DNA of 31,115 bases, from positions 1 through 31,115 of the IMG/VR virus record IMGVR_UViG_3300037484_001104. The stretch is one strand, 5' to 3'. The notes beneath the pieces are model-generated. The model made no database searches and had not been told where the DNA came from. It saw nothing but the letters and a program-made list of their open reading frames with translations. A program made the position numbers and the translations under genes. Of this stretch, positions 718-30,344 are shown piece after piece. Within the stretch, counting starts at the first letter, position 1. Every line of letters starts with the position of its first letter. The stretch is from a virus (lineage: Duplodnaviria; Caudoviricetes).

Positions 718-853
718 GGGGCAAGCGCCACAAAAAACGCGCGCGGGGGGCTTGTGCCCGTTCACCCCTAAGAGCATGGGGTTCACTCCCCGCGCCGTTT
801 TTGTGAGAACGCGCTTGCCCCTTGCCAGGCGGCAACGAACAAGAGCGCCGCCT
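718..853. promoter_or_regulatory. Structured hairpin module A upstream of the SLOG/DprA-like gene
   Basis: 47-nt core 745-791 is 46/47 identical to 29995-30041. It is enclosed by inverted repeats 718-728/811-821 and 729-739/796-805, and followed by hairpin 827-853. Confidence 0.7.
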
Positions 854-949
854 TGTGCCTTTTTGCCATGCAGTATGGAAATTGGGCTGCGCGTTTTTTA
901 GCCCCGCCAATCTAAGCAAGCCCGCAAGCGGGCAAAGGTCAAGGTCATC

Positions 950-1474
950 ATGTCAAGTGTCTATTTCGGTGGTTCCCGCAATCTCCCCCAGTCCCCATTA
1001 GTCGGTCAGGTCGTTTCAGCCGTCATCGAGTCCGGCGCGTCTGTCCATGTTGGTTGTCAATTTGGGGCAGATCAGCAAGTCGCCACTTTTTCAGCCTGCT
1101 TTTATCCTTTGTCTCTCGTTGTTTTCGCAGTTCATGCCCGTGGCCTGGCATCATCTCATGTTCAAACCGCCGAAAATATCGGCGCGCGTGTTGTCTATTC
1201 CGCAGGTGGTCAAGGCGCGCCCATGCGTGCCCGTTATCTGCTCAGGTCCAAAGCTGCCTTTGCTGGCTGTTCTGCTGCTGTTTTCTTTGCCCCTGGTGCT
1301 GGCTCGCTAGCCGTTGCCCGCGAGGCCGTCAAGGCTGGCATCCCCGTATTCGCTTTTTGGGTGCAAGCCTATCCCCCCGCTCCCATCCCATCCACCCCCG
1401 GCCAGTGGGTGCGTTCTTCATTCGCTGGCTTTGGTTGCTGGCAGTTCCAGCCCGCCCAGGCTGGCTTAATCTAA
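950..1474 (+). CDS. SLOG-superfamily (DprA/Smf-like Rossmann fold) protein
   Basis: Motifs VYFGGSR, VGCQFGAD, RYLLRS, GSLAVAREAVKAGIPVFAF follow the SLOG/DprA pattern. Confidence 0.7.
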   Translation: MSSVYFGGSRNLPQSPLVGQVVSAVIESGASVHVGCQFGADQQVATFSACFYPLSLVVFAVHARGLASSHVQTAENIGARVVYSAGGQGAPMRARYLLRSKAAFAGCSAAVFFAPGAGSLAVAREAVKAGIPVFAFWVQAYPPAPIPSTPGQWVRSSFAGFGCWQFQPAQAGLI

Positions 1475-1489
1475 TCCTTTGGAGGTCCC

Positions 1490-4555: not shown

Positions 4556-5380
4556 TTATGCAGTCAAGTTTTTGACCGGCAAGTAGGGCCGGACAGCTTC
4601 CAGGCTAACTGACTGTGTATAACGCTCAACCATTCCTATCGACGACCAACGCCCTCCAAGCTGGATCAACCGGCTGGGAGCGCCGAACACCGTTGCAATA
4701 GTAGCATAGGAACGTCGGAAATCGTGAGGAGAGAGCTTGATACCTATAGCCCGACCCCACTGTTTAACAATACTCTGCAAGCCTTCCCTTGTCAACTTAC
4801 GGCCAGAGCGTGTACTCACGAACAAAGCCCCTTCGCCCGGCTTCGCCCGGCGAAGCGCGAGCCAAGCCAATATGTATTCAGTAGTCTGGTCCGAGAATAT
4901 CCCAATCCCCCACTGACCACCTTTGACAACCACTTGAAGCACATGCCGGTCAAGGTCTGTATCGGCCAACTGTAACCGGCAGACCTCAGACACGCGCAGG
5001 CCTGTATCCAACAACGTAGCCGCAAGAGCCAGATCACGCGCCCCCTTCGGGTTCGACGCATCAAACCACATTAGAAGCTCGAGCGCCTTTTCAGGAGTAA
5101 GCACCCGCTGGGGCTTCGGTCGCTGGGATTTGATCCTAGCCGATAAAGCCGGATGACTCTGGCCATGGCGCCAGCGCAGAAACTTCCGGCAAGCCGCCAC
5201 CGCAAGACACTGCTGACTATTCCCCCACCCCTGAGATTGAACCAATTCCACAAGCCCCGACGCCGTCAGACCTTGCAGGTCTCGACCAGCCAATAACCGG
5301 GCAAAGACTCTTCGATAAGAGTCCTTCGTGGCTTCGCTGTAAGCGTGCGAAGCCAGAAATTCACCTACATCCTTTTCCAT
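4556..5380 (-). CDS. int: Tyrosine recombinase/integrase
   Basis: TGLRVSE, VKGG, HDFRR, GRW, ERY give the R-K-H-R-W-Y catalytic set; GGAG RBS. Confidence 0.95.
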   Translation of the reverse strand: MEKDVGEFLASHAYSEATKDSYRRVFARLLAGRDLQGLTASGLVELVQSQGWGNSQQCLAVAACRKFLRWRHGQSHPALSARIKSQRPKPQRVLTPEKALELLMWFDASNPKGARDLALAATLLDTGLRVSEVCRLQLADTDLDRHVLQVVVKGGQWGIGIFSDQTTEYILAWLALRRAKPGEGALFVSTRSGRKLTREGLQSIVKQWGRAIGIKLSPHDFRRSYATIATVFGAPSRLIQLGGRWSSIGMVERYTQSVSLEAVRPYLPVKNLTA

Positions 5381-5429
5381 TTTTTATCTCCATAGGTTAT
5401 CCCAGGCTCGGACGACCCCCAAGCCTGAT

Positions 5430-5516
5430 AACAGAAAGCCGCGCCGGGAACGCGGCCAAGTAACGCGCAGTCACCCGCTGGGGAGTCCCTACCACAGGAG
5501 ACCAGCGGGCGACTGC
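5430..5516 (-). ncRNA. Candidate ~87-nt antisense/leader RNA upstream of int
   Basis: TAGAAT -10 at 5528-5523; 15-bp stem 5467-5481/5502-5516 whose one mismatch is G-U only on the minus strand; terminator-like hairpin 5438-5456 followed by UUUCUGUU. Confidence 0.6.
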
Positions 5517-5573
5517 ATCTCAATTCTACACTATTTCAAAGTCCCGCCACGGCGGGAAAAGGAGACCCTACCA

Positions 5574-5756
5574 ATGTCTAAATCCCTCCCCATCGGTACC
5601 AAAGTCAAGGTATCGACCAATCACAACCGCAAGATTGGCGATGAAATCGAAATCGGCGACAGCAAAACCCAAGAGTCGATCAACATCGGCAAAGTGGTCA
5701 AGCTCATTCTGGCAGGAAGTTCAGTAATCGCCGTCATCGCACAGATCGTCAGGTGA
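5574..5756 (+). CDS. Hypothetical protein
   Basis: AAGGAG RBS motif; first gene of the rightward early operon. Confidence 0.7.
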   Translation: MSKSLPIGTKVKVSTNHNRKIGDEIEIGDSKTQESINIGKVVKLILAGSSVIAVIAQIVR

Positions 5757-5760
5757 AGCC

Positions 5761-5898
5761 ATGGGTAACGAAAAAAAACCAATCCTTCATTTCAAGGCAA
5801 GCGGACCAGGATGCGAAGCAGTGGTAATTGGCTTCATGATCGTAGTACTGATCCTTACAGTGGTTCGTATCCTGGCTATTTCCAACATACTCAAATAA
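5761..5898 (+). CDS. Small membrane protein, 45 aa
   Basis: AGGT RBS; hydrophobic stretch VVIGFMIVVLILTVV. Confidence 0.55.
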   Translation: MGNEKKPILHFKASGPGCEAVVIGFMIVVLILTVVRILAISNILK

Positions 5899-5909
5899 GG
5901 ACTGCCACC

Positions 5910-6140
5910 ATGCTCTACCACATTCAAATCATACGCAACAAGGCACAGATCGAGCAGCCAGGTTATCAGACCCAGCAATACACCCCGGAAGAACTGGCAG
6001 CCGTGATCGCCAACACTACCCACCCGTTCAGGCGTTTGGCCGCGCTACGCGCAGCCAAACGCCTGCTTGAGCGCCATCTAAATCCGGTCTCGCTTCCAGC
6101 ATTTCTCACCCGGAGAAAGGAGTCATATAGGCCCAAATGA
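5910..6140 (+). CDS. Hypothetical protein
   Basis: AAGGA RBS before ATG 5910; ATGA overlap with the next gene. Confidence 0.65.
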   Translation: MLYHIQIIRNKAQIEQPGYQTQQYTPEELAAVIANTTHPFRRLAALRAAKRLLERHLNPVSLPAFLTRRKESYRPK

Positions 6141-6412
6141 ACCCCCGTGAAACCGCCGTGCTCGCAGCCGTCCAAGGACACTACGCCCGGTACGGCGTGC
6201 CCCCCACTATCCGCTACATCATGCGGCGGACCAATATCCCCAGTTCGGACACAGTTTTTTATTATTACAAAAAACTGGTCCAGGCGAAAGAGATCGTGCT
6301 CGCTGGGAGTCCCGGCTCCCAGCGCAAGCCGGTCCCCATATCCATATTCAATTTGATTACCAAAAAGGAGACCCTACCAAATGTCACAACAAGACTTGAA
6401 CCCACAGAATAA
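6137..6412 (+). CDS. LexA-type winged-HTH DNA-binding domain protein with no peptidase domain
   Basis: RETAVL...YGVPPTIR.I.....I.SSDTV.YY.KKL resembles the LexA N-domain. Confidence 0.75.
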   Translation: MNPRETAVLAAVQGHYARYGVPPTIRYIMRRTNIPSSDTVFYYYKKLVQAKEIVLAGSPGSQRKPVPISIFNLITKKETLPNVTTRLEPTE

Positions 6413-7112
6413 TGAATTCCAGCGAGGCCGCTCCACCGCCATGTTCATGGCCGGTTTCGTTTATGTCGGCGTCGTACTGGCCGCCACCACCCTGTTTATC
6501 AGCTTCGTGCTCACAGCCTTTCCCAATGACGCCTACTTCTCGCGCGGCGTCATGATCGTGGCTGGCTTGATGATTGGCGGCTCGATGCTGGCCTTCCCGG
6601 TATCCCTGCATAACTGGGCTATCAGCGGCCTGCACCGCACCATCACCACCGGACTGTACTACGGCGAAATGATCATCATCGCCCTGAACACCGTCGTGTC
6701 CTTTGCGGCCCTGCTCTTCGAATACTCGAACACCCCCCTGCCCGCCTGGATCACCTGGTACGAACCCTTCTCCATCGTGTCGATTGTCTACACACTCGCA
6801 GCCTGGGGCACGGTTTTTCTCACCGACCCTATGGCACAGGCCAAGGCAAACGAGTTAAAAGCTGACCAGACATATCTCAAGCGCATCGGCGACAAACGCA
6901 TGGAATTTCTCGACTCCATCGAAGGCGAAGAAGCCATCCGGCAGGCCTCAGAGATCGATATCGCCAAGCGCTTCAATCCGGCCAACCTAAGAAAGGTACG
7001 CGGGCACTTCGGAAAAGCACGCGAAGAAGATGAGCTAGCCGATAGCTTGTTCAGCCAGAAGAAACTCACGGCTGAAGCCCCCTTTCGTCCCGACCCCGAA
7101 GCAAAGGGGTAA
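6381..7112 (+). CDS. Multi-pass membrane protein with charged C-terminal tail
   Basis: About four hydrophobic segments; AAGGAG RBS motif. Confidence 0.8.
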   Translation: MSQQDLNPQNNEFQRGRSTAMFMAGFVYVGVVLAATTLFISFVLTAFPNDAYFSRGVMIVAGLMIGGSMLAFPVSLHNWAISGLHRTITTGLYYGEMIIIALNTVVSFAALLFEYSNTPLPAWITWYEPFSIVSIVYTLAAWGTVFLTDPMAQAKANELKADQTYLKRIGDKRMEFLDSIEGEEAIRQASEIDIAKRFNPANLRKVRGHFGKAREEDELADSLFSQKKLTAEAPFRPDPEAKG

Positions 7113-7353
7113 CCAGATCTACACCTGGACCTGCCAATACTGCATGATGCCTTTCGATACCGAAATCTATGCACAACGCTATTGCAGCCCAAGCCATAAA
7201 ACCATGGCCTACAGGCTTCGAAAGGCCGAACGTGAAGCGCAGGTCGAATTAGAGTGATCGTGTTCACGCTTTGACCGTGAACACAGAATCGCATGTAGGC
7301 CCTCTGGAGGGCGGTTCCGTGGCCGCCCTCCAAGGCCAAACAAAGGAGACAGC

Positions 7354-7449
7354 GTGGAAATCAAAAAAGAACAACTTATCGCGGCTATCTTTTTCTTTGG
7401 CCTGGCTTGCCTGGTCTTTCTCACCATCCTGGCAAACAGCGGCCGCTAA
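7354..7449 (+). CDS. Small membrane peptide, 31 aa (MEIKKEQLIAAIFFFGLACLVFLTILANSGR)
   Basis: AAGGAG RBS, GTG start, single hydrophobic helix. Confidence 0.55.
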   Translation: MEIKKEQLIAAIFFFGLACLVFLTILANSGR

Positions 7450-7464
7450 ACAGGAGTCCCTACT

Positions 7465-8115
7465 ATGCAATACGAAAACCCGATCAAACTTTTGCGCATG
7501 CTCAAAGGCGCGCCGCTCTCCGTGCTCTTAGCGATCGCATGGTCCGGCCAAGCCGTCACGAACGGCTGGCTGGCAAGCGTGACAGGCTACACAGACAAGA
7601 CCGTCGCCAGCGCTTTGATCTTGCTCAAAGAATACGACATGATCACCAACACACGCACCGGCTGGATGATCGCCAATGGAGCTCAACTTAAACTAGGCAT
7701 CTCTGATAATTCGGATACCTTTGTCCGATTAAGTCGGAATAATTCCGATTCTTCTTCTTCTTTAATTAAAGAATCAGTAGAGATTTATAGTGAAGAACAA
7801 CAAGAAGAGTCGGAGAAATTCCGGATTAATCCGCTATTTGAGTCCAATTTAGTTGCTTGTCTAACATCCAAGATCCGGGAACCCAAAGCCAGCATCCTGG
7901 CCGACTTACCACACGTCACCCCCGAATACATCTATGCCCACACCCAGACCGCACGCCTCGAAGGCAACCTAATCGGCACCGCTATCTACCGCATAGAGAA
8001 CAACTGGGACCAGCCACTACCACCACCAAGCACCGCGCAAAAGGTTTCTTACATGGACGAGTACCTGAAAGCAGACGGCGCGGAGCCATTCAAAACGGGA
8101 GAAAAGTTCAAATGA
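7465..8115 (+). CDS. Putative replication initiator / replisome organizer (N-terminal wHTH)
   Basis: HTH-like LASVTGYTDKTVASAL; low-complexity linker coinciding with DNA repeats; helical C-domain. Confidence 0.65.
   Translation: MQYENPIKLLRMLKGAPLSVLLAIAWSGQAVTNGWLASVTGYTDKTVASALILLKEYDMITNTRTGWMIANGAQLKLGISDNSDTFVRLSRNNSDSSSSLIKESVEIYSEEQQEESEKFRINPLFESNLVACLTSKIREPKASILADLPHVTPEYIYAHTQTARLEGNLIGTAIYRIENNWDQPLPPPSTAQKVSYMDEYLKADGAEPFKTGEKFK
7711..7827. other. Putative replication origin (iteron-like palindromes) inside the initiator gene
   Basis: TCGGA...TCCG palindromes at 7711-7728, 7734-7748 and 7810-7824 around AT-rich TTTAATTAAA (7761-7770). Confidence 0.5.
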
Positions 8116-8483
8116 GAAAAATACTCACGATCCTACCTTTTATCTTCTTGCTCGCCTGCCTGGCACCAGTAGCAGGCTTTGAACCCCCGGCAGATCCGGC
8201 ACCAACAAAAACAGCGATCCCGCCGGCAGCACCGTCACCGACGCCGGTACGGTCCACCTCCTGCGCCGCCGTCAACACCGACTCCCTGCACGTCCGCTAC
8301 CAACCCAACGAGCACGCCCAGGCGATGGGGTGGGTGACCGAAGATACAACACTCAAAGTCCTGGATAATTCGGGCGGGTGGTGGAAGATCAACGGCGCCG
8401 GCATCGACGATCAGGGACGCCAGACGCGCATGACCGGCTATGTCAATTCGGACTATCTGACAGAAATGGAGTGCAACCCATGA
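8112..8483 (+). CDS. Lipoprotein with Pro/Thr linker and SH3b-like domain
   Basis: MRKILTILPFIFLLAC lipobox; LHVRYQP...WWKI...GYVNSDYL. Confidence 0.8.
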   Translation: MRKILTILPFIFLLACLAPVAGFEPPADPAPTKTAIPPAAPSPTPVRSTSCAAVNTDSLHVRYQPNEHAQAMGWVTEDTTLKVLDNSGGWWKINGAGIDDQGRQTRMTGYVNSDYLTEMECNP

Positions 8484-8659
8484 CAGCCATCCACATGATC
8501 AAAGTCAACGAAAAGGCCGTGCTCAGGATCGTAGGCATAAAGGGAAATGCCGTTAGCGAAGCCAAGTTCCTAGAGGGCCACGGCTGGAAGGTCGTAACCA
8601 AAGAAACATACGACCTGAAGAAAAAAGAGATCCACCAACTCGGGAGGAAATCAGCATGA
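8480..8659 (+). CDS. Hypothetical protein
   Basis: ATGA overlaps at both ends. Confidence 0.65.
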   Translation: MTAIHMIKVNEKAVLRIVGIKGNAVSEAKFLEGHGWKVVTKETYDLKKKEIHQLGRKSA

Positions 8660-8862
8660 TCGAAACTATCCAAATCCCGCTCGAATTCGTGCGAAACATC
8701 GCAGAGATGCGCCGGGCACAGAAGCAAGGCGATCCATTCCGTAGCAAGGAACTCGAAAAGATTGTAGATCTGGAGCTAGCCACCATCACCAACACACTCG
8801 AACAGCTCAAACAAGGACGCTTCTACGATGACGACCGGACGGAAGTCGAAAGCAGGCTGTGA
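8656..8862 (+). CDS. Hypothetical protein
   Basis: GGAGG RBS; operon overlap. Confidence 0.7.
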   Translation: MIETIQIPLEFVRNIAEMRRAQKQGDPFRSKELEKIVDLELATITNTLEQLKQGRFYDDDRTEVESRL

Positions 8863-9206
8863 TGCCCACACCAGTACTCTACGTCTTCACCCCCAAAGCC
8901 AGCAAAGAAATCAGTGAGCGCCTGCTCGCACTCACCGGCCACACCGCCGACCTCAGCGAAGCCCTCGACCAATGGGAAGCCGAACGCGAACTGACCCAGG
9001 ACTTGCACGAAAACTACGACCGCTACCGGATCGAGAATACCCAGCTTATCAAACTGGTACGCCAGGCAAAGATGACCATCGACCGGATGAACGCAGATGC
9101 GGGCCTGTTCCTGAAAGACAAATCCCGGCAGTGGATGCAGGATTTTATGGATGAACTTGAGAAACTGAGAAAGATCATCCCGCAGCTTATGGAACCCCCG
9201 TTCTAA
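8859..9206 (+). CDS. Hypothetical coiled-coil protein
   Basis: Operon overlap; genome-typical codon usage. Confidence 0.7.
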   Translation: MMPTPVLYVFTPKASKEISERLLALTGHTADLSEALDQWEAERELTQDLHENYDRYRIENTQLIKLVRQAKMTIDRMNADAGLFLKDKSRQWMQDFMDELEKLRKIIPQLMEPPF

Positions 9207-9246
9207 GTACCCTGTACGATGTCAGAAGTATGTCAGAAATCGCGCA

Positions 9247-9669
9247 ATGAGCAAAGCCATATCAGAAGACCTGCAAAGCCTGTTCGACATCCTGGAAGCC
9301 CTACAGCCGCGCGCCGGGAAAGTGAAGATCTTCGAACGCCTGGCGCACAGGCTGTCCAGGATCGCAGGCCAAAACCGGCCATGGTCCTGGCGCTACATCC
9401 AGGGAGTCATGACCGGAACCATCCAGCCCAGCAAGCACCTGGCCCACGCCGTAGAACTCCTGGCCGCAGCCATCGACGGCGAACCGCCCGAATTCGTGGA
9501 GGCCCAGCCAATGCAGGTCCTGGCCGACCCGGCCAAAGTGCAGGCCGGGAGCATGATACTCGGACAGTCGAAGCAATGCGACGAGCCAGGCTGCACCATC
9601 CAATTCGTCCCTGTTGTGCCATGGCAGAAATACTGCCCGGCGCACCGGGAGCCAAGAAACCGAAAGTAG
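9247..9669 (+). CDS. Hypothetical protein with possible HTH and C-terminal Zn ribbon
   Basis: CDEPGC...F.P....QKYCP.H at the C-terminus. Confidence 0.7.
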   Translation: MSKAISEDLQSLFDILEALQPRAGKVKIFERLAHRLSRIAGQNRPWSWRYIQGVMTGTIQPSKHLAHAVELLAAAIDGEPPEFVEAQPMQVLADPAKVQAGSMILGQSKQCDEPGCTIQFVPVVPWQKYCPAHREPRNRK

Positions 9670-9676
9670 GTAACCC

Positions 9677-9868
9677 ATGTCAGAAATAGACAATTTCGAT
9701 GAACTAGAGAAAGCCATCAAAAAGCAAATACACGACGCACTCAGCGAGATTGCAGATCAAAACCGATTTGCTGAAATCCAACCCACGGACGCAATTCTCG
9801 AAGCCGCCGCACTGGCAGCCGCGCAAGTAATTATCGCCTTCGAACACGGCTACAGACTTGGAGGCTAA
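9677..9868 (+). CDS. Hypothetical protein
   Basis: Close operon spacing. Confidence 0.65.
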   Translation: MSEIDNFDELEKAIKKQIHDALSEIADQNRFAEIQPTDAILEAAALAAAQVIIAFEHGYRLGG

Positions 9869-9870
9869 TC

Positions 9871-10194
9871 ATGTCCCAATCCGAAAATGATGAACTCTTC
9901 CAAAACTACAAAGCCGAACTCGAACAACTCGAAAAGGCAGGCTTCCAGATCCACATCTCACTCAAGCCCGTACTTGCCGTGTCCATCATCAGCGCACTAC
10001 AACTCGCGCTCCGCCACCCGAACTTCAAAGGCCCGGTCAGTGTAATTGTGTTTAACTTCATCCGCATGTTGAGCGATGAATTCAAGGGCCGCGCGCCCTT
10101 CACAGCGGAGGTCATCCGGCGCGGCGGGTTGAGAGAATACGACCAGCCGGTCAAGCGCCACCCCAAGAAAGGCGGGAACCATGCCGACCCTTGA
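9871..10194 (+). CDS. Hypothetical phage protein
   Basis: GGAGG RBS; LQLALRHP motif. Confidence 0.7.
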   Translation: MSQSENDELFQNYKAELEQLEKAGFQIHISLKPVLAVSIISALQLALRHPNFKGPVSVIVFNFIRMLSDEFKGRAPFTAEVIRRGGLREYDQPVKRHPKKGGNHADP

Positions 10195-10528
10195 ACACAC
10201 ACTCGAAGACATCATTGCCGCCGCAGACGCAGCCACTCCGAACCAGGCCAAGCTCACACTCTCAGGCGGACTCCATCTCAACCTACGCCGAGACGGGAGC
10301 ATTTACCGGCTGATCATCTGGCGCAACGGCATCTATCCATCCTTCAAAGAGTGGAACACCATCTGCGCAAAATGGCCCTACAATACAGGCTGGCCGAACC
10401 CACACGAGGGCAGCTTTGAAGGCCGGAAGTACTTGCAAGGAGTCATCCCGGCCCACCCGAAGACGAGCGAGATGCAACCGGCCAACGGCCAACCCAGCGG
10501 ACGGACAGAACCCGCCGCTGATTTCTAA
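10181..10528 (+). CDS. Hypothetical protein
   Basis: Operon overlap. Confidence 0.7.
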   Translation: MPTLEHTLEDIIAAADAATPNQAKLTLSGGLHLNLRRDGSIYRLIIWRNGIYPSFKEWNTICAKWPYNTGWPNPHEGSFEGRKYLQGVIPAHPKTSEMQPANGQPSGRTEPAADF

Positions 10529-10540
10529 GTTAGGCTTCTT

Positions 10541-10762
10541 ATGAATGATAATCGCCCATTCCCTATCCAGCATGAATACAGCCGCAATGAACGCGGTGAG
10601 ATGGAACGCCACGCTGAATGTACGATCCCTTGGTGGTTGGCTGAGATTGCTTATGAATGGTATTCTAGGCAATATGGCACAATCCAGAGCCTGGAAAGGT
10701 TAGCTGAACGCGGCGGATTTGGCAGAAAAGAATTGCTCATGCTTATCCGTCACGAAGCCTAA
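10541..10762 (+). CDS. Hypothetical protein in an attC-like cassette frame
   Basis: T-richer codon usage; flanked by GTTAGGC (10529-10535) and GCCTAAC (10757-10763). Confidence 0.7.
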   Translation: MNDNRPFPIQHEYSRNERGEMERHAECTIPWWLAEIAYEWYSRQYGTIQSLERLAERGGFGRKELLMLIRHEA

Positions 10763-11772
10763 CACCACGTGCAGCGGACGGGCGAAAGAATACCAATAAA
10801 TCGCCGCATCCAACCGTGACGGTTGATCCCGTTATGGTGCAGCAGCCAAAGAAAGCCCACCGACGCCAGCCGAAAGGCCACCTATGACTATATCCACAAC
10901 TCTCCCAACCTACTGCCAATCTCCCGAAAACTGCGCTCACACCTGTTTTGAGAGCGAGTCACAGGACAGCAACCACGTAAGGACAATGTGCCTTTCTTGC
11001 GGCTCGCCATTGCCAAACCCGAACACCCGTGCTACACTTCCCCACGGCGGGGGACTGGCTGCCCCCCTCAGCCCGAAACCCGCCCCTTAGATCGATACTT
11101 ATTATAGGGGAGTTGACCCGGTCAACGGTCAAGCTCCCCGCATTGAGACAGGACCGCCCGGCGAACCCGGGCGGTTCGCATTTAACACATGGCCAGCACC
11201 GTCAGAAATGACGAGCATCGAAGCTCGCCATAAATAGCGATACCAGCTCAATCACTCTTGCTCAGGCGGACGGGCCGGCTCCATCGGCCCGCGAGTACGC
11301 GGGCCTTTTTGCTACCGGGGGGAGTACCCCCCGAACCCCCAACATCCCCACATCCGCACAACACCCCACATCCGTGCGCGGCCAGAACGCCAATGGTGCG
11401 GCTTCCCTCAGTCCCCCCTGCCACCCCGCCCCCCACACCCCCCACCCCGGCACACCCCCCAGCAATGTACCCATCTAGAAGTGGGGGGCAGGCGTTCTCA
11501 GGGGGGCTTCGGCTGGCTACCTTCACGAAATTGGGCGAAGAGCACCGCCGTCAATTTCGCTCAGTCGCCCAGGCCGCCCATTGGCAGGCCGCGCAGATTG
11601 CGAGCGAGTACGCTCGCCTTTGCGACGGGTGACAAACACCACCCGTCGCCCCTCTCACAGCGGCGGCCAACCCCCGCCGCTCCCGTTCGAGCACCGGCCC
11701 GCCCCCGCCAAGAACGCGGGCCGGACGTTCAAACATTCGTAGGACAAACGTACCCCCCCTTGCGCACCTACA

Positions 11773-11801
11773 TTGACAGCCTAGAACAAGTGTGCAAAAA
11801 T
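11773..11801 (+). promoter_or_regulatory. Probable late-operon promoter
   Basis: TTGACA-N17-AAAAAT with a TGn extension; degenerate GAAC-N4-GTTC box in the spacer. Confidence 0.55.
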
Positions 11802-11807
11802 CGAATT

Positions 11808-11886
11808 GGCTAGACTCGCTCCCCTTGAGAGTCTAGCCGCTTTTTTAAGGGGAGCGAGCGACAGCCGGCAGCCGGCTGTTTTTTTT
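11808..11886 (+). terminator. Attenuator-like leader: two tandem terminators plus an alternative pairing
   Basis: Stem 11808-11817/11829-11838 + T6; stem 11861-11879 + T7; 11815-11826 is complementary to 11847-11858. Confidence 0.7.
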
Positions 11887-11903
11887 ATCTGTATAAGCGG
11901 CGG

Positions 11904-12218
11904 ATGAGTCCCATGCCCGAAAGCGCCATACAACTTCTTCTGCAACTGCCCATCGTCGGTATCTTCGTCTTCTTCATCCTGGAGTGGTCGAAGCGCATGG
12001 AGAAGAGCCAGGAAGACCGCGAGACAAAATGGAGGGAGTTTCTAAGAGAAGAACGAGAGCAACGCTCAGAGAACGCCAGGCGACTAGCAGAAGAGATCAA
12101 ATCAGTCTCGCAGGAAGTCTCACGCATGAGCGGGATCATCACCGCGCACGATGCGCGCAGCCAGGTCCGGGCAGAACAGGGACGCGCAACCGGGCAATTG
12201 AAGCCGAAGGACCCATGA
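11904..12218 (+). CDS. Holin-like protein (one N-terminal TM helix plus coiled coil)
   Basis: LLLQLPIVGIFVFFIL followed by a charged helix; alternative start at 11913. Confidence 0.55.
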   Translation: MSPMPESAIQLLLQLPIVGIFVFFILEWSKRMEKSQEDRETKWREFLREEREQRSENARRLAEEIKSVSQEVSRMSGIITAHDARSQVRAEQGRATGQLKPKDP

Positions 12219-12222
12219 GCAC

Positions 12223-12591
12223 ATGCCCGCCCCCCCAGGCAATACCAACGCAGTCAAACACGGCTTCTACTCCAAACGCTTCACTCGCCGCGAAAAGAAC
12301 CGCCTCGCCAAAGGCGACGACGACCTCGAAAGCGAGATCAACGCTTTACGGATCGTGGCCGACCGGATCATGCAACGGCTCGGAGAGAATGGGCTCAAGC
12401 CCATCGAAGCCGATGAGACCACAACCCAACTCAGTGAAAACGCACTCAAGACAGTCAACACCCTGGCTAATGTGATGCTCACTATCTCAACCCTGGCCCG
12501 CTCACACCAGCTCATCATCGGCAAGTACCTGCCGGTCGAGACCGCCATCATGGACGCGCTGGCCGAACTCAACGACGAAGACGGGATATAA
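12223..12591 (+). CDS. terS: Terminase small subunit
   Basis: APPGNTNAVKHGFYS N-terminus; directly upstream of terL. Confidence 0.8.
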   Translation: MPAPPGNTNAVKHGFYSKRFTRREKNRLAKGDDDLESEINALRIVADRIMQRLGENGLKPIEADETTTQLSENALKTVNTLANVMLTISTLARSHQLIIGKYLPVETAIMDALAELNDEDGI

Positions 12592-12592
12592 C

Positions 12593-14089
12593 ATGTCGAC
12601 ACTTACCCAGCGCGCCAAGACCATCCAGCGCAACCCGTACAACTTCTCACTCCACGGCGGGGGAATGGAACTCAGGCCGTATCAAGTCGAACCCATCGAG
12701 GCAATCTGGAATTCAGTTAAACACAATCTCGGTCTGACCATCGTCATTATCATCTCACGCCAGTCAGGCAAAGACGAGCTCCTCTGCCATCTCAAAGCCT
12801 ACCTGCTACACCGCTTCCAGAACAAAGACGTGGAGATCGTCGAATTCAATCCCACCTACAAACCCCAGACCATCCGCGCCATCTTCCGCTTGGAAAGCCG
12901 GATGAACACCAACGTGCTCACGCGTAACCGCTGGAAGAAGCGCTCGGACTTCATGCGCATGATCGGCCAGGCAAAGGTTAGCTTCCTATCCGGCGACGGG
13001 CAAGCCAACGTGGTCGGAGCGACTGCGTCACTCCTGCTGATCATCAACGAAGCCCAGGACATCTCGCCAACTGTGTACGACAAGAAGGCCAGCCCCATGG
13101 CCGCCAGTACCAACGCCACCAGAGTCATTGTCGGCACGGTCTGGACATCCGGCAGCCTGCTATCCCGCGAACGCCGCGCGGCGGAAGCCGCCGAGAAACT
13201 GGACGGCATCCGGCGCGTGTTCATGTACGACGCGGACGAAGTCCGCAAACACAACCCGGCCTATGGCCGCTTCGTGGACGGCGAAGTGCAGCGATTAGGG
13301 AGACAACACCCGCTCGTCAAAACGCAGTACTTCAACGAAGAGATCGACGCCGAGATCGGCATGTTCAACGCGGCGCGGCGGGCGCTTATGGTCGGTGACC
13401 GCCCGGGCACAGACCTACCCGAACCCGGTCACGCTTACGCCTTCCAGATCGACGTTGCCGGGCAGGACGAAGCGCGCATGAACCTGGACGAAAACGCGCC
13501 GCTCACCAATCCCGGACGCGATGCGCTCACGCTTTCCGTGATCGACATCGACCTGTCATCGCTCGAATTGCTTTCCTTCCCGACCTACCGGGTCGTACAC
13601 CGCCAGCCCTGGACCGGTCAGAACCACGTGGTCATGTTCGGCAAACTCAAGGCGCTAGGCGAAGTATGGAGACCGCTCTATTTCATAATCGACGCAACAG
13701 GAGTAGGGGAGGGACTGTGGGCCATGCTCGACCGCGCCTTCCCCGGTAAAGTGATTCCCATCAAGTACACCCAGCAGGCCAAGTCCGAGATCGGATACGG
13801 CTATATCGCCGTGATCGAAACCGGACGCTTCCGCGACTGCGCGCCGCAGGCACTTGTCGACTTGCAATATCTCAACATCAAAAGCGAGATCCTGCCCGGC
13901 CCAGCCAAAACCATGCGCTGGTCCGTGCCCGAAGGCACGCGCGACGACGCGACCGGCGAACTCATCCACGATGACTTCGTCATGTCCGATTCCTTAGTAG
14001 CCATTCTCGACAAGCTCGAATGGACGATCAGCCAGGAGTCGACCATCCTGCAACGGGACATACAGAAAGAAATTGACGGAGGTTATTAA
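12593..14089 (+). CDS. terL: Terminase large subunit
   Basis: LRPYQ, Walker A SRQSGKDE, Walker B LLIINEAQD, nuclease motifs IDVAG / IDATGVG / HDD. Confidence 0.93.
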   Translation: MSTLTQRAKTIQRNPYNFSLHGGGMELRPYQVEPIEAIWNSVKHNLGLTIVIIISRQSGKDELLCHLKAYLLHRFQNKDVEIVEFNPTYKPQTIRAIFRLESRMNTNVLTRNRWKKRSDFMRMIGQAKVSFLSGDGQANVVGATASLLLIINEAQDISPTVYDKKASPMAASTNATRVIVGTVWTSGSLLSRERRAAEAAEKLDGIRRVFMYDADEVRKHNPAYGRFVDGEVQRLGRQHPLVKTQYFNEEIDAEIGMFNAARRALMVGDRPGTDLPEPGHAYAFQIDVAGQDEARMNLDENAPLTNPGRDALTLSVIDIDLSSLELLSFPTYRVVHRQPWTGQNHVVMFGKLKALGEVWRPLYFIIDATGVGEGLWAMLDRAFPGKVIPIKYTQQAKSEIGYGYIAVIETGRFRDCAPQALVDLQYLNIKSEILPGPAKTMRWSVPEGTRDDATGELIHDDFVMSDSLVAILDKLEWTISQESTILQRDIQKEIDGGY

Positions 14090-16081
14090 ATGGCAAAAAT
14101 CTTCGGGCGAGAAATCCGAGTCCGCAACCCCTTCCGCGCAGCCATCGACCAGGCCGTCGAAGAACGCGTAAAGGCACGGCTCTCGAGCATGGCCGAGACT
14201 GACGATACCATCATCATCGGCACACGCACCGGGCGGGACATCTTCCGCGACCGCAACAATTGGGACCGTGCCACCATTATCAGCGAGACCTTACTCGCCT
14301 GGAGAACCAACCCGATCGCGCGGCGGATCACAGACGCCATCGTCGAATTCGTAGTAGGCGACGGCATGGCCCCGACTATCCCGCACAAGCCTACCGCCGC
14401 TTATGTTAAAGAATTCTGGGAGCATCCACTCAATAACCTGAATGAGCAAATCCCCGAATGGGTAGCCGAACAATCACGCACCGGCGACCTGTTTCTACTG
14501 TGCAGCGTGGACGCCATGGACGGGTCGATGTTCGCGCGCGCCGTGCCATCCGAACAGATCAGCGAGATACAGACCTTCGATAACGACTACCGCCAGGAAA
14601 CAGCCTACATCCAGCAGGACATCAACGCATCGCCATACGTAGCTTACGACCCACTCGACCCCGAGCAGACCCAGTTCATGTTGCACCACCCGATCAACAG
14701 GGTGGTCGGCTCGACCTTCGGTGAAGCCGACCTGACACCCGTCCTGAAATGGCTGGGTAGGCTGTCCACCTTGCTCAACGACCGGGTCATTATGAACCAC
14801 CTGCGCAACCTGATCGTGTACATCGTCAAGGTCAAAGGACTGGAAAAAAAACAGCGCGAGTTGCGCGAGCGCGAGCTCAACGCCAACCCACCCCAACCAG
14901 GTGCTATCGTCGTAAACGACGAGAGCGAAGTATGGGGCACGCTCTCCCCAAACATGCAATCCTTCGACGCCAATATGGACATCATTGCCATCAAGAAGCA
15001 CATTGCCGCAGGCATCGGGCTACCCTTGCACTACATCGCCGAGCCGGAGTCCAGCACGCGCACCACAGCGGAGGCGGCGGGCACGCCCACATTCCGCAAG
15101 TTCAAGATGCGCCAGAACAGCGTCAAACGGGCGCTGGCCTACCTATGCACCATCGCCGTGGTCAAGCGCAACCACTTCAGCAAGAAGCGCTTCCAAGCGG
15201 CCGGTATCGCCATCCGCGCCGATGACGTGACCGAGCGTGACAACTCCACGCTGGCCCTGGCCGCCGCCCGGATCGAGCCAGTCCTGGCCGACCTGTTCGA
15301 CAGGATGATGATCGACGAGCCGACCTACCTGCTTCTGTTCTACGAGATGCTGGGCAAAGATTACGACACGGACGGCACGCAGCCTAAAGGCATCCGGCGC
15401 AAAGTAAAAGAGCCGGAAGGCACAACCGGCGAACCAGATCCGGGTGAACCGGATGATACCAACACCGAGGAGAGCCAGAACGCCGCGCCGACGTTCAACA
15501 TCACACAACCGGCGATCCAGGTCCACATGCCCAAACAGGCCGCACCGGTTATCAACATCAAGAACCAGATCCCAGAGCAAAACGCGCCGGTCGTGAACGT
15601 CACCAATCAAATCCCGGAGCAGACCGCGCCGGTTGTCAACGTGACGAACCAGGTCGAGACCCCGGAAGTCACAGTACAAAACAACATCCCCCAGCAGGCT
15701 GCGCCTGTGGTGAATGTAACGAACGAAGTCGAGACACCAGAAGTCAACATCACGAACCAAGTCGAGACACCGGACGTGCATGTCACGAACCAGGTCCCCG
15801 AGCAGGCTGCGCCTGTCGTAAACGTCACCAACCAGGTCGAAACGCCGGAAGTCAATGTCACGAACCAAGTCGAGACACCGGACGTGCATGTCACGAACCA
15901 GGTCCCCGAGCAGGCTGCGCCTGTCGTGAACGTCCAAGTCGAAGCGCCAGAAGTGAACGTGACAAACCAGGTTCCTAAGCAGGCCACACCTATCGTGAAT
16001 GTGGTTAACCAGGTCGAGCCAGCGCCGCCACAAGCGCTGGACGTTGAATACGTCAAGCCGAAAAGGAAAGGCAAGAAATAA
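14090..16081 (+). CDS. Portal protein with repetitive C-terminal extension
   Basis: Follows terL; NPIARRI...FVVGDG, GDLF, IAAGIGLP.HY patterns. Confidence 0.85.
   Translation: MAKIFGREIRVRNPFRAAIDQAVEERVKARLSSMAETDDTIIIGTRTGRDIFRDRNNWDRATIISETLLAWRTNPIARRITDAIVEFVVGDGMAPTIPHKPTAAYVKEFWEHPLNNLNEQIPEWVAEQSRTGDLFLLCSVDAMDGSMFARAVPSEQISEIQTFDNDYRQETAYIQQDINASPYVAYDPLDPEQTQFMLHHPINRVVGSTFGEADLTPVLKWLGRLSTLLNDRVIMNHLRNLIVYIVKVKGLEKKQRELRERELNANPPQPGAIVVNDESEVWGTLSPNMQSFDANMDIIAIKKHIAAGIGLPLHYIAEPESSTRTTAEAAGTPTFRKFKMRQNSVKRALAYLCTIAVVKRNHFSKKRFQAAGIAIRADDVTERDNSTLALAAARIEPVLADLFDRMMIDEPTYLLLFYEMLGKDYDTDGTQPKGIRRKVKEPEGTTGEPDPGEPDDTNTEESQNAAPTFNITQPAIQVHMPKQAAPVINIKNQIPEQNAPVVNVTNQIPEQTAPVVNVTNQVETPEVTVQNNIPQQAAPVVNVTNEVETPEVNITNQVETPDVHVTNQVPEQAAPVVNVTNQVETPEVNVTNQVETPDVHVTNQVPEQAAPVVNVQVEAPEVNVTNQVPKQATPIVNVVNQVEPAPPQALDVEYVKPKRKGKK
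15488..16015 (+). repeat. About 15 P-x-V-N-V-T-N-Q coding repeats in the portal C-terminus
   Basis: Visible in the translation; near-exact DNA duplication at a 108-bp offset (15751 vs 15859). Confidence 0.9.
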
Positions 16082-16082
16082 C

Positions 16083-16349
16083 ATGCCACTCCGTGAAGTC
16101 GTAGCCGTCCGCAACCCCGAAGACGGGACCCCACTCGTTATGAAACTGGAAAACGAAGAGCAGATCGTTTCCCAGCTTGAAGCCATGAACGGGCTGATTC
16201 CCGTGGCCTACGACCACGTAACCCTATCCTACACCGGCGACCACCTCACACAAGCCACCTTCAAAGCAGGCGGACCCAACGGCCAGGTGGTCGCCACCTT
16301 GATCCTGACCTACACAGCCAACCGGCTGACGAGTGTAACGCGCACATGA
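16083..16349 (+). CDS. Small beta-rich virion-associated protein
   Basis: ATG 2 nt after the portal stop; ATGA overlap with the fibre gene. Confidence 0.65.
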   Translation: MPLREVVAVRNPEDGTPLVMKLENEEQIVSQLEAMNGLIPVAYDHVTLSYTGDHLTQATFKAGGPNGQVVATLILTYTANRLTSVTRT

Positions 16350-17881
16350 AAGTCATCTTCAACCCACTCTCCAACCAGTTCGAAATGGTCACGGACACGA
16401 AAGAGATCCGCACCGTAGTCATGGACGTGCTGCGAGATGTGCCGCTCGGCGGCGGGGGAGGCGGCTTACAAGATGCGCCGAGCAACGGCTCGCTGTATGG
16501 CCGACAGGATGGAGTCTGGACAGTCGTACCGGAAGGAGTCACAGATCACGCGCTTCTTTCCAACCTGGACTATGCCAGCGCCGCGCACACCGGCTTCCAA
16601 GAGACACTTACCTTCCCGCTCGCCGCCAACCTGGGTGGGACGGGCATTGCCAATCTAGCAGGTTCTACGCTCACGCTGGGCGCGGCAACCAGCATCACGG
16701 GCGGGGGAATTGTGGCGCTTGGCGGCTTTACGTTGACTGTACCGGCTACGGGGACGGCGGCGTTGCTGGCGACGGCGAATGTGTTTACGGCTATTCAAAA
16801 AATAAATGTCAACTCAACTGTTGCTTTATTGGTAGAACAAGATGGCGTAAAAGATAATGTTTTAGTAGTTGATACAACTAGTGGCAGAGTGGGAATAAAC
16901 GTAATACCGACCTTGCCTTTGCAAATTGCAGGGGCATCGACATCATCAGTTGTTTATATTGCGGGAACGTCAACAGTCAATTCATATGCGTATGGCAATC
17001 GACTGGATACGACAGTCACTTCGGCAACTCAACACGCCTACGGGTGGTATCAAAATGCGACAGTTGCACCAGCCAGCGGGAAAACAGGAACAAATTTTGC
17101 CGTACAAGGAACAATCTCAACCGCCGCCGGTACAGTTGACAATGTTCAATTTTTAATTGGCAATGTGACTAAAGCGGGCGCGGGGACTCTCAATAATAAT
17201 TATGGGTTACAGATTTTCAATCAAACGTCAGGGGCTAATAATTATGCCATTTCCGCCGGAAAAGGGTTAAGCGTGCTCGGAGATCAGCTATCCATTTCTG
17301 GCTGGCAGGATGTGAACCAGTTGATTGTTACCGGCTTCACTACGCAAACTTTACCGCTTGCTCATCTAATCGACAACACCGGAACCACAAATGCAATCCG
17401 AAACGTCCTGCAACTCGAAGCCCGAAGCACAGGCACGGCGGCGGCTGGCTTTGGCGTGGGGTTGCCGTTCCTTGCAGAGACGGCCACAGATGCGACGTAC
17501 CAGCAGCAGGGGCTAATCAGTACCAGTTGGATAGATGCTACGAATGCAACCCGCAAAGCGAAGATGAGCCTGAGCGCATACGATACGGCGGCGCGGTTGG
17601 GTATCGAAATTGAGGCAGATGGGAGCGCGGCCAAGCTGGGATTTTATGGAGTCGCAACTGTTGTTCGTCCTACCGCATTGACAACCCAACTAACCACCAT
17701 CACGCACACGGCCCCAACCCCGGACTATGCCATTCAGGATTTTGTAGACGTTTCGCTCGGCACGGGCTGGGCGTTTGCCAGTCATGACGAAGCCAACACA
17801 ACGTTATCCGTTATCGCAAATTTACAAACTCGCGTGAGCGAGATTGAGACGAAATTGCAGGCATTGGGCCTGCTGACATAA
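16346..17881 (+). CDS. Fibre/spike (receptor-binding-like) protein
   Basis: G/T/A-rich beta repeats, DAPSNGSLYGRQDG and GRVGIN motifs, C-terminal coiled coil; mosaic GC content. Confidence 0.7.
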   Translation: MKVIFNPLSNQFEMVTDTKEIRTVVMDVLRDVPLGGGGGGLQDAPSNGSLYGRQDGVWTVVPEGVTDHALLSNLDYASAAHTGFQETLTFPLAANLGGTGIANLAGSTLTLGAATSITGGGIVALGGFTLTVPATGTAALLATANVFTAIQKINVNSTVALLVEQDGVKDNVLVVDTTSGRVGINVIPTLPLQIAGASTSSVVYIAGTSTVNSYAYGNRLDTTVTSATQHAYGWYQNATVAPASGKTGTNFAVQGTISTAAGTVDNVQFLIGNVTKAGAGTLNNNYGLQIFNQTSGANNYAISAGKGLSVLGDQLSISGWQDVNQLIVTGFTTQTLPLAHLIDNTGTTNAIRNVLQLEARSTGTAAAGFGVGLPFLAETATDATYQQQGLISTSWIDATNATRKAKMSLSAYDTAARLGIEIEADGSAAKLGFYGVATVVRPTALTTQLTTITHTAPTPDYAIQDFVDVSLGTGWAFASHDEANTTLSVIANLQTRVSEIETKLQALGLLT

Positions 17882-17892
17882 GGAGATTTGAC

Positions 17893-18195
17893 ATGGCAGA
17901 GCAAGCACAAAAACTAGCATTTACGCAACACGTCCAGAACTTAGCCAACGAATTGGCATCGTTTCAGGACAGATGGACAGACGCCTTCAACGTGCAGACC
18001 GCGCGCGAATGGGACCCGGGCGGAGACGATCCGATCACCGATGAAGATATAACCAGTGCAAACATTACCGCCGCGCAGCTCAATTCGTTCCTGTCCACCC
18101 TGCGGACGCGCTTTGTTTCCCTGATGAGCGGACAAACTGTTTCCGGCGTGGTGGCTGGCCGTTCTGTGACCGATACGATCCGCAGCGATTTATAG
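17893..18195 (+). CDS. Hypothetical protein
   Basis: AAGGAG RBS. Confidence 0.75.
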   Translation: MAEQAQKLAFTQHVQNLANELASFQDRWTDAFNVQTAREWDPGGDDPITDEDITSANITAAQLNSFLSTLRTRFVSLMSGQTVSGVVAGRSVTDTIRSDL

Positions 18196-18414
18196 ATGAA
18201 AACAAAAACCATCGCGCCCCCAAACGGGACCGAGAAGACCGTCAAGAAACCGAACCTGAAAGCGCTCATCGAGCAGGAACGTAAAGAGCGTATCGAACGC
18301 TGCTCGAAGCGCATCGAGCAGGTCCTTACCGAAGAAAACTGTACACTGGACGCAACTGTGATCATCTCCGCGCGCGACATAATCGCGCAGATCCAGATCC
18401 TTTCGAAGGAGTGA
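18196..18414 (+). CDS. Hypothetical protein
   Basis: Abuts the previous stop codon. Confidence 0.65.
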   Translation: MKTKTIAPPNGTEKTVKKPNLKALIEQERKERIERCSKRIEQVLTEENCTLDATVIISARDIIAQIQILSKE

Positions 18415-18614
18415 AAGTGAAGTTCACCGCAAAAACAAAGTCCGTCAAAGCCGACCTTGCCAAAGGCACAATCAGCATCTCGTTCGAGATCGACCTGACA
18501 GACGGCACAACCAAAGAAGCCAGTGAACTGGCCTTCTATACCGACAGAGATTCCGGCCTGGTTGACTTGCTCATCACACCACGCCAGCAACACATGTTCA
18601 CGGAGGAAGAATGA
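18411..18614 (+). CDS. Hypothetical protein
   Basis: AAGGAG RBS; GTG start at 18411 or 18417. Confidence 0.65.
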   Translation: MKVKFTAKTKSVKADLAKGTISISFEIDLTDGTTKEASELAFYTDRDSGLVDLLITPRQQHMFTEEE

Positions 18615-18976
18615 CCTATCGCGTAATCCACACCGCCCCTTACTACGCCAGCCCAGGCGAATCCAACCGGGACGACATCCCCGCCGGCACCATCGTCGAA
18701 ATCGTCGGTACTTCAGAAGAATGGTCGCAGATCAGTGGCCGCGACCCAAACCCATGGCGCGGGAAATGGCTGCGCACGTTCTACCTGGAAGAAGTGATCG
18801 AGGGCGAAGAACCGGAGCCAGAGCCGGAGCCGGAGCCACAACCAGAACCCGCGCCTTACTTCATCCTGGAAGAACCGAGCGGCGCGCGCACGCGCTACCT
18901 GCTCGCGCCCGTTGGCTTCCAAGCGAGCGCCTTACAGCGTTTCATGAACTTCTTCAAAGGCGTCTTCCGTGCGTAA
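18611..18976 (+). CDS. SH3-like domain protein with EP-repeat linker
   Basis: IPAGTIVEI...W....GKWL...YL followed by EPEPEPEPEPQPEP. Confidence 0.6.
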   Translation: MTYRVIHTAPYYASPGESNRDDIPAGTIVEIVGTSEEWSQISGRDPNPWRGKWLRTFYLEEVIEGEEPEPEPEPEPQPEPAPYFILEEPSGARTRYLLAPVGFQASALQRFMNFFKGVFRA

Positions 18977-20238: not shown

Positions 20239-20241
20239 CCC

Positions 20242-22458: not shown

Positions 22459-22529
22459 GAACTTTTGTATTCACCCCTGGGGTGAACAACCCCAGGGGAT
22501 CAATTCAATCCCTATAAGGAGACCAAGCC

Positions 22530-23036: not shown

Positions 23037-23045
23037 GAGGCCAGC

Positions 23046-23561: not shown

Positions 23562-23563
23562 AG

Positions 23564-23851: not shown

Positions 23852-23854
23852 CTC

Positions 23855-24208: not shown

Positions 24209-24337
24209 ACCTATACCGGAATCGTGCCGAGATGGCACGATTCCGGATCCTACCGTCAAATAAAGCGATGGGCGCCGGCAGACATCGCCTAAAACGGCGA
24301 TGCTGGCCAGCACCACCAGAAACAGCGATGTGATCAT

Positions 24338-30333: not shown

Positions 30334-30344
30334 GTTAGGCAATC

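Follow-up and report, generated by a model that had tools for sequence, protein, structure and literature searches.

Introduction

Avoidance of target sites in first-expressed phage DNA is known from early regions that are poor in restriction sites and from mRNAs that lack ACA under MazF. Among the described systems closest to the locus reported here are toxins of the phosphoribosyltransferase (PRTase) class and the DprA-like antitoxins that are their cognates. According to the accessible portions of the reports cited here, the toxicity of RqlH depends on its PRTase domain, which has been proposed to alter a DNA nucleotide, with the DprA-like RqlI resolving the change (PMC4670107), and the toxicity of ShosT has been attributed to disturbed purine metabolism (PMC11961720). 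R139 and R234 of the antitoxin ShosA, which correspond to R52 and R143 of HpDprA, are required for ssDNA binding and for antitoxin function (accessible text of PMC12961424). Viral SLOG domains, to judge from its accessible part, are the topic of PMC9503650.

ADP-ribosyltransferases provide a second comparison. CmdT modifies the A of GA in single-stranded RNA and blocks translation, and its authors mention the GA in Shine-Dalgarno (SD) sequences (PMC11618068, accessible text). DarT acts on T of single-stranded DNA only (PMC5179494, in the part that is accessible) and requires TNT; ADP-ribose on the template strand causes only some stalling of RNA polymerase in vitro (both from the accessible text of PMC12170906).

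Here we analyse a stretch of 31,115 nt of viral DNA (positions 1 to 31,115 of IMGVR_UViG_3300037484_001104; Duplodnaviria, Caudoviricetes), hereafter the window. An initial annotation of this DNA had claimed that two of its genes are purged of GA and AC dinucleotides. We find that the purge is real, conserved and strongly selected, and that it is unexplained by characterised enzymes.

Results

The phage and its non-coding region

Judged from its integrase, terminase, portal and protease-capsid genes (Table 1), the window is a complete small temperate tailed phage. Its ends overlap by 133 nt, so that on a circle the two purged zones would lie about 1.6 kb apart, both within a single stretch of non-coding DNA that is rich in hairpins and precedes the early genes. 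The host likely belongs to the Anaerolineae, on the thin basis of one homologue in an Anaerolineales MAG and one protein labelled Chloroflexota.

Table 1. Positions of the features discussed, in the window unless a contig is named.
Feature	Position	Strand	Remarks
Purged zone 1 (leader, RBS, DprA-like gene)	845..1481	+	5 GA and 3 AC in 637 nt
Gene for the 174-aa minimal DprA/SLOG Rossmann-fold protein	950..1474	+	Invariant G8, R10, G39, D41, R99, G118
GA-free Shine-Dalgarno-like sequence AAAGGTCA	934..947	+	Overlaps a second AAGGTCA
Hairpin with 13-nt purine-rich loop	829..851		Upstream edge of zone 1; further copy at 638-660
47-nt double-hairpin element	745..791		Tip of a long stem; 98% identity to 29995-30041; z -3.7
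Purged zone 2 (leader, RBS, small ORF, terminator)	30074..30399	+	1 GA and 2 AC in 326 nt; RBS at 30163-30170
51-aa basic orphan ORF	30178..30333	+	Without D, E, T, N; exchangeable slot
Copy of the loop hairpin	30058..30080		Upstream edge of zone 2
47-nt element, second copy	29995..30041		z -7.8
Intrinsic-terminator-like hairpin and T run	30345..30368	+	Closes zone 2
Phage gene block	4556..27612		Context of the zones
Integrase	4556-5380	-	
Terminase	12223-14089		
Portal	14090		
Protease-capsid	20242		
Predicted tail protein	25021		
Purged slots with other small ORFs	L206:5250-5727 (G560); L200:6459-6560 (G559); L207:446-644 (G561)		No DprA-like gene

None of the 51 window ORFs was recognised as a tape-measure or ejection protein, and none matched PRTase or RecQ. 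The tail module (22530-27612) is very small and encodes a pair of paralogous proteins of 170 aa, one of 227 aa and a repeat protein of 863 aa. The early region encodes a four-helix membrane protein with a coiled-coil tail (6381-7112), which we take to be reminiscent of plasmid spread proteins, and an SH3b lipoprotein (8112-8483). A terminase related to that of the window is present in 474 viral contigs. The non-coding region also carries a 151-nt direct repeat (2.3 copies, 30392-30744), one 153-nt unit of which is missing in a relative from the X1 run, and a 28-bp inverted repeat (30916-30989). Many viral contigs (L001, L002, L005, L007, L012, L016, L017 and L198/L199) end in the cassette or within about 2.5 kb of it; these ends may be a real terminus or an assembly failure caused by the hairpins.

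The purge in the window

The hand counts of the initial annotation were reproduced. The gene at 950-1474 contains 13.0% A and 29.7% T, with 4 GA (17.4 expected) and 3 AC (21.6 expected), and the small ORF at 30178-30333 contains 11.5% A, with no GA (5.5 expected) and 2 AC (4.8 expected). The leaders had been described as similarly depleted, and indeed both purged zones exceed the limits of their ORFs. They are the lowest in GA+AC of the whole genome: the minima over 300 nt hold 2, 3 and 4 sites, the next holds 22, and the mean is 41.

The depletion of the large ORF survived a shuffle that preserves both the protein and its codon counts (7 sites against 14.3, p<=0.0001) as well as recoding by the codon usage of the phage (7 sites against 31.9, p<=0.0001; 10,000 shuffles in each control). 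All seven GA/AC sites in this gene are forced by Asp, Glu or Thr codons, with none at synonymous positions and none at codon junctions, and its His, Tyr, Asn and Asp codons end in T in 11 of 11 cases, where the phage uses C in 70-74%. The depletion is more than codon bias. For the small ORF the claim stands for GA, which is significantly depleted against a mononucleotide shuffle (p=0.0016), but not for AC (p=0.10), and no depletion was left after codon-preserving shuffles. Usage had been said to return to normal at the ORF starting at 1490; the return there is partial (observed/expected (o/e) 0.44 for GA and 0.54 for AC), with GA reaching 1.02 in the ORF at 1715.

The purge among homologues

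A tblastn search for the DprA-like gene gave 68 hits, 57 of them distinct and 42 complete, the window's gene included. The homologues share the depletion, with pooled o/e ratios of 0.26 for GA, 0.41 for AC and 0.48 for TA; the DNA downstream of 25 homologues gave 1.02, 0.84 and 0.70, respectively. Across the 42 complete genes GA spans a codon junction 13 times where 156.5 were expected, and GGA is used for one of 681 Gly codons. TGA is the stop codon in 1 of 42 homologous genes, compared to 10 of 36 other window genes. Just 20 unforced GA remain across 34 de-duplicated genes with at least 7.5% A. Avoidance of AC is weaker and more variable, with 0-20 unforced sites per gene in 34 genes, and the ratios were 0.60 for AC, 0.29 for TAC and 0.19 for GTA. 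The leaders are non-coding and have a GA ratio of 0.21; in 27 of them GAC occurs 2 times against 51, GAT 4 against 59 and TAC 15 against 66.

Where an A is needed, its neighbour is altered and not the A itself: CAT exceeds CAC by 129 to 47, but TGT and TGC stand at 97 to 135. Genes for host DprA and for PsyrA are unpurged (GA o/e 1.09 and 1.13, the latter from one PsyrA). On the downstream side the purge extends no more than about 25 nt from the stop codon, and in two loci (L013 and L019) its onset is at or near the start codon. The partly purged members reveal the sequence context, in the order GAC > GAT > TAC/GTA on the coding strand and GTC > ATC on the template, and distant members are nearly adenine-free (1-5% A). 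The slot is kept GA/AC-free on the coding strand by selection, which acts on the dinucleotide and not just on A or on the amino acids. The initial annotation had proposed strand-specific selection on first-expressed genes: selection is borne out by the codon controls, by the homologues and by the leader, SD and stop sites, while the 'first-expressed' part is suggested by position only.

In L018 a 1.9-kb nearly A-free block with two ORFs (L018:3757-5885) starts about 230 nt ahead of a predicted promoter and runs on for 270 nt past a terminator-like hairpin, with a tract of about 30 A on its upstream side and 8 A on its downstream side. In some distant cassettes a small adenine-poor partner ORF lies upstream of the DprA-like gene (L014:1963-2274, L080:7651-7944 and L058:2078-2335). 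For these partner ORFs we found just a sub-threshold SPOR match (E 0.006) and no confident match in the Atlas.

A minimal DprA-like protein

The SLOG identity given to the 174-aa protein holds, but its likeness to DprA, ShosA and PsyrA had been missed. A word-based search found 254 relatives and a profile search 378 cluster representatives. The structure model (pLDDT 96) retrieved ShosA first and DprA next in Foldseek, and aligned with DprA at Z 15.6 and rmsd 2.9 over 154 residues, the DprA-type domain taking up residues 1-163 of 174. A profile of 89 members matches DprA structures with E 3e-9. R10 and R99 are invariant in all 89 and align with R52 and R143 of HpDprA, its ssDNA-binding arginines. 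Asp41 is likewise present in 89 of 89 members, is the sole acidic residue in 25 of them and forms the sole conserved acidic column. It is retained at the cost of a GA, in a family that is poor in D, E, T, K and N.

The window protein did not match PF02481 at its curated cut-off, nor any other Pfam or PADLOC family. Weak matches to PF02481 were seen in 10 of 103 close members (best E 7e-4), and some wider members carry its label. PADLOC called PsyrA in 11 of 89 members and ShosA in 6, all of them weak matches (best E 2e-6) to models that ordinary DprA matches too. From its sequence and modelled fold, the phage protein would work like DprA, ShosA and PsyrA, and we do not file it as a ShosA, a PsyrA or a LOG member. 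The family is rare in genomes of the presumed host phylum (2 of 401 at E<=1e-12) and is here a phage gene. Annotated phages gave no match to the 174-aa protein; plasmids gave three Nitrosococcus records, with a similar cassette.

The purged slot without the gene

No homologue was found for the 51-aa ORF of zone 2. In one contig from the X1 run the leader and terminator of this zone are kept with 242 other letters between them, and in a second X1-run contig the slot at 30178-30333 has an in-frame 3-nt insertion. The DprA-like gene is present in 6 of 22 relatives picked by their terminase (2 of 4 near-complete ones). Three of 10 gene-less relatives have a purged slot with a similar leader and other small ORFs in it. 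The purge thus belongs to the slot more than to the gene, and the ORFs in the slots of L206, L200 and L207 are candidate anti-defence genes.

Ribosome-binding sites and hairpins

As the initial annotation had claimed, AAAGGTCA precedes both starts; among the other window genes GGAG or AGGA is found in 21 of 31, and GA at -20..-3 in all 31. The SD windows of the homologues have GGAG or AGGA in 1 of 34, compared to those 21 of 31.

Ahead of each zone stand a copy of the 47-nt element and one of the loop hairpin. The stem of this boundary hairpin covaries in nine hand-picked copies. It is also found before the RBSs of unpurged genes, with normal GA downstream in 5 of 7 motif-only finds, and so may belong, as an RNA element, to a longer transcript. 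The loop hairpin was rejected as an indicator of purging: among 74 motif matches 7 had a stem of at least 5 pairs, and only the 2 known loci were purged. Folding showed no strand preference (mean z -4.4 for the top and -4.6 for the bottom strand, the top being better in 10 of 22), and the mismatches in the top-strand stems, 52 A-C against 28 G-T, are a bias that mutation skew alone could yield. Rfam gave no match for three loci. A single-strand-origin motif was uninformative, as it occurs on both strands and both near to and far from the slot.

The motif AAGAGC is strand-biased upstream of the gene, with 83 top-strand and 12 bottom-strand occurrences over 42 loci (in the window at 340-851 and 30020-30080). 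Hairpins with AAGAGC in the loop also stand before the RBSs of ordinary genes in unrelated viral contigs (L219, L275, L279 and L290). The reverse complement of AAGAGC presumably resembles boxA.

DNA or mRNA as the target

The 150 nt upstream of the -35 box contain 1.6 GA at 14 cassette promoters and 8.9 at 56 control promoters, all of them sigma-70-like, predicted by pattern only and drawn from related loci; intergenic controls (42/43) have 8.1 GA per 150 nt. A paired comparison in 13 of 14 loci gave 1.0 against 4.5 GA per 100 nt (p=2e-4), with TC on the same strand unchanged. By a promoter search that was neutral for box positions 4-6, the -35 box itself is TTGC at 15 of the 16 cassette promoters, whereas 16 of the 20 controls have TTGA (p=1e-5). 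Six of 15 predicted promoters would give a leaderless mRNA, and the purge is present all the same. In the window's own two zones we found no such promoter.

Because the purge affects a single strand, any target in DNA has to be the template-strand T, with TC preferred over GT. Purging upstream of the promoters, in the -35 box and together with other ORFs points to selection on DNA, and the first two of these favour the template-strand alternative that the initial annotation had put forward in generic form. On balance we lean, by slightly better than even odds, towards DNA rather than mRNA as the target. Against DNA stand the boundary hairpins before RBSs of unpurged genes, since an upstream transcript could cover the -35 box, as well as the onset of the purge near the start codon in L013 and L019, the lack of a folding preference and the failure to find a promoter in the window's own zones.

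In the window and in 7 of 7 relatives an integrase-flip test shows the template strand to be rich in G at its fourfold sites, no matter which strand is coding; AT skew, or T-richness, tracks the physical strand in 5 of 7 relatives. At fourfold sites the plus-strand genes have A 0.20, T 0.08, C 0.47 and G 0.25, and the minus-strand genes A 0.09, T 0.30, C 0.22 and G 0.39. Nearly all genes have a template strand rich in G and T; the relatives compared were G002, G542-G546 and G549, the AT part being reversed in G549. This skew is as for a strand that is often exposed single-stranded. The composition of the slot opposes the genome's own A-rich skew.

A proposed orphan antitoxin to a toxin that modifies DNA

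The enzymes named in the initial annotation do not account for the motifs. Coding-strand ANA, which DarT specificity for TNT or TNTC would deplete, is not depleted (o/e 1.16 in genes and 1.27 in leaders), and GANA is depleted hardly beyond other GANN (0.33 and 0.45). Of the 205 unforced AC sites that remain, 78 are in ACA, the MazF site, and among the GANN 4-mers the ToxN site GAAA is depleted least (13 against 15.6 expected). MazF and ToxN thus fall as mRNA-side candidates, and the best one, CmdT with its adenine in GA, had been missed.

As the main reading, to which we give a probability of roughly 0.36, we propose that the phage carries an orphan antitoxin to a PRTase toxin, of the PsyrT/RqlH or ShosT kind, that modifies DNA. 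A host enzyme would modify DNA bases, namely template-strand thymines in TC and GT contexts, and the purged slot would leave it few target thymines, so that the DprA-like protein could still be made under attack. The attacker would be a PRTase toxin of the kind named. The phage protein would bind the modified single strand and either remove the adduct via Asp41 or load RecA for bypass. Going by its position, the slot would be expressed first, and the later, unpurged genes would rely on its product. We propose a PRTase toxin because its cognate antitoxins are DprA-like and direct DNA modification has been proposed for these toxins; such modification, the base included, is a proposal for any toxin of the class. 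The Anaerolineales MAG (G001) has a homologue in two pieces and also a PsyrTA pair with a PRTase domain. That pair, which is PsyrTA/RqlHI-like, comprises a RecQ helicase with a C-terminal PRTase and then a DprA-like gene (L213:4112-7860). Among 151 Anaerolineae genomes PsyrA occurs in 7 and DarT in 20. GA, the strongest motif, is the known CmdT motif, and this counts against a PRTase. So do the attribution of ShosT toxicity to purine metabolism (PMC11961720), the low frequency of PsyrA in the class (7 of 151), the thin basis of the host assignment and the failure of the window's own protein to match a Pfam or PADLOC family, and the weak stalling of RNA polymerase by template-strand ADP-ribose (PMC12170906) speaks against the wider reading. 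The wider generalisation, that the PRTase toxins ShosT and PsyrT/RqlH phosphoribosylate a TC/GT thymine on ssDNA and that minimal DprA-fold proteins erase it, we regard as unlikely.

Two other sources of the purge were considered and rejected. The sole candidate recognised for a phage-made modifying enzyme, a C5 methyltransferase, is absent from 10 of 10 related records. An uncharacterised 294-aa ORF at 18969 occurs in 2 of 10 related records. Mutational loss of A, by a diversity-generating retroelement or a deaminase, does not fit the finding that a needed A stays while its neighbour changes, and none of the 51 ORFs was recognised as a reverse transcriptase.

A close rival to the PRTase reading is CmdT-like attack on mRNA, a tentative possibility to which we also give well under even odds. 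In this reading the toxin is a CmdT-like ADP-ribosyltransferase that targets N6 of the adenine in GA, or else an RNase with an adenine context. It would block other messages while the purged one could still be translated, and the SLOG protein would act against the toxin by taking off the adduct or in some other way. It accounts well for GA as the most purged pair, for an SD without GA, the motif being avoided in SD and coding sequence as for a CmdT-evading message, and for the avoidance of TGA. It likewise fits a purge that stops about 25 nt past the stop codon and sets in near the start codon in L013 and L019, and a boundary hairpin that behaves elsewhere as a 5'-UTR element; the nearly A-free members (1-5% A) would fit a wider adenine specificity in other hosts. 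However, protection of mRNA makes a purged -35 box and upstream DNA unneeded, least of all needed at leaderless promoters. CmdT needs no C or U, so that AC, TAC and GTA (0.60, 0.29 and 0.19) are left over, ACA and GAAA are not singled out, and the protein retains the ssDNA-binding residues of DNA-directed antitoxins.

Improbable, in our estimate, is a genome that enters or persists with only its template strand, the hairpins priming the second strand or serving as single-strand promoters; the purge would then keep the first-copied stretch free of sites for a T-directed nuclease or glycosylase. Long hairpin arrays do stand before both zones (mean z about -4.5 over 22 loci), at several loci the purge sets in at the hairpin up to 200 nt before the promoter, and fourfold GC skew is 0.25-0.47, as opposed to <=0.17 for the majority of the lambda and phiC31 gene sets. 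DprA handles incoming single strands, and no tape-measure or ejection protein was recognised among the 51 ORFs. Against this, terminase, portal and capsid indicate a virion with double-stranded DNA, neither a rolling-circle initiator nor a relaxase was recognised, the comparison phages are just two, and the hairpin also occurs unpurged.

We think it still more improbable that a DarT-like thymidine ADP-ribosyltransferase, with an unreported preference for TC and GT, attacks the exposed template strand, which the phage protein would coat while loading RecA for bypass of the lesion. The restriction of DarT to ssDNA (PMC5179494, accessible text) agrees with it, as do a modified T that precedes C in TNTC, the presence of DarT in 20 of the 151 genomes from the class presumed to include the host and the skew that suggests template-strand exposure. 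Yet every characterised DarT needs TNT, on the accessible text of PMC12170906, whereas ANA and AAA are enriched here, and the known anti-DarT proteins in the accessible part of PMC11825919 are macrodomain or NADAR enzymes and not DprA folds.

That there is no conflict at all, the purge reflecting mutation bias, amino-acid needs or missing tRNAs, agrees with a family poor in D, E, T, K and N but is scarcely credible, because junction, synonymous, leader (GAC 2 against 51), -35 box and stop sites are all purged, which led us to reject the amino-acid and tRNA-shortage versions, and because host DprA and PsyrA genes are normal and the slot runs against the A-rich skew of its genome.

Discussion

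A family that forgoes Asp, Glu, Thr, GGAG, TGA and TTGACA to avoid two dinucleotides must be under very strong pressure. The full-text literature covered here, a scope outside which lie most subscription papers and the 2015 SLOG classification, holds no description of GA/AC-purged or adenine-purged DprA-like genes. The window contributes a form purged only in part, in which the context is visible, as well as purging of the -35 box and the occurrence of the slot without the gene. Partly purged members can reveal a sequence context that fully adenine-free members cannot, and this context gives a concrete substrate prediction for the defence toxins ShosT and PsyrT/RqlH or for CmdT-like enzymes. 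Scanning for slots purged on one strand is, moreover, a homology-free route to anti-defence genes. If the wider generalisation on the PRTase toxins is true, the sequence of a purged 'boot slot' would be the written record of an undescribed DNA modification. The PRTase toxin class would gain a substrate, catalysis would be added to what the DprA fold does, and in natural transformation ComFC and DprA would appear as writer and eraser.

How does this locus compare with known systems? DprA/Smf (PF02481, SLOG superfamily) shares the fold, the GSR and GxD motifs and both ssDNA-binding arginines. It is a chromosomal competence gene, whereas the gene here is carried by phages, and on plasmids, and encodes a stand-alone domain of 174 aa in which a C-terminal beta hairpin is added in the model and acidic residues are almost gone. 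The phage gene is purged of GA and AC, and the DprA gene of the host has normal usage.

ShosA and PsyrA/RqlI also have a DprA-like domain. ShosA is the top Foldseek match, and the arginines of the phage protein match those that neutralise ShosT. Unlike ShosA, with its SAM domain at residues 1-94, the phage protein has no N-terminal SAM domain; it has no adjacent PRTase toxin, it is carried by the invader, and the genes of the described antitoxins are unpurged (one PsyrA). The LOG phosphoribohydrolases have a PGGxGTxxE motif with the catalytic Glu. In the phage protein the corresponding stretch is PGxGSLAVA and the catalytic Glu is absent.

Phage orphan antitoxins offer a parallel in strategy: as proposed for NADAR against DarTG1, a borrowed antitoxin fold disarms a toxin-antitoxin defence. 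The fold and the toxin are different there, and the accessible text of PMC11825919 makes no mention of a purge of the antitoxin's own gene. CmdTAC comprises the only characterised enzyme that we found whose motif is the most purged pair, SD included. It leaves unexplained the purge of AC, TAC and GTA and that of untranscribed promoter DNA, and a GA-free escape gene is not mentioned in the accessible part of PMC11618068. Finally, the locus resembles target-site avoidance in first-expressed phage DNA in that an antidote gene avoids the recognition site of the poison; here, in contrast, what is avoided is a dinucleotide on one strand, to a degree that reshapes what the protein is composed of and also its SD, stop codon and -35 box.
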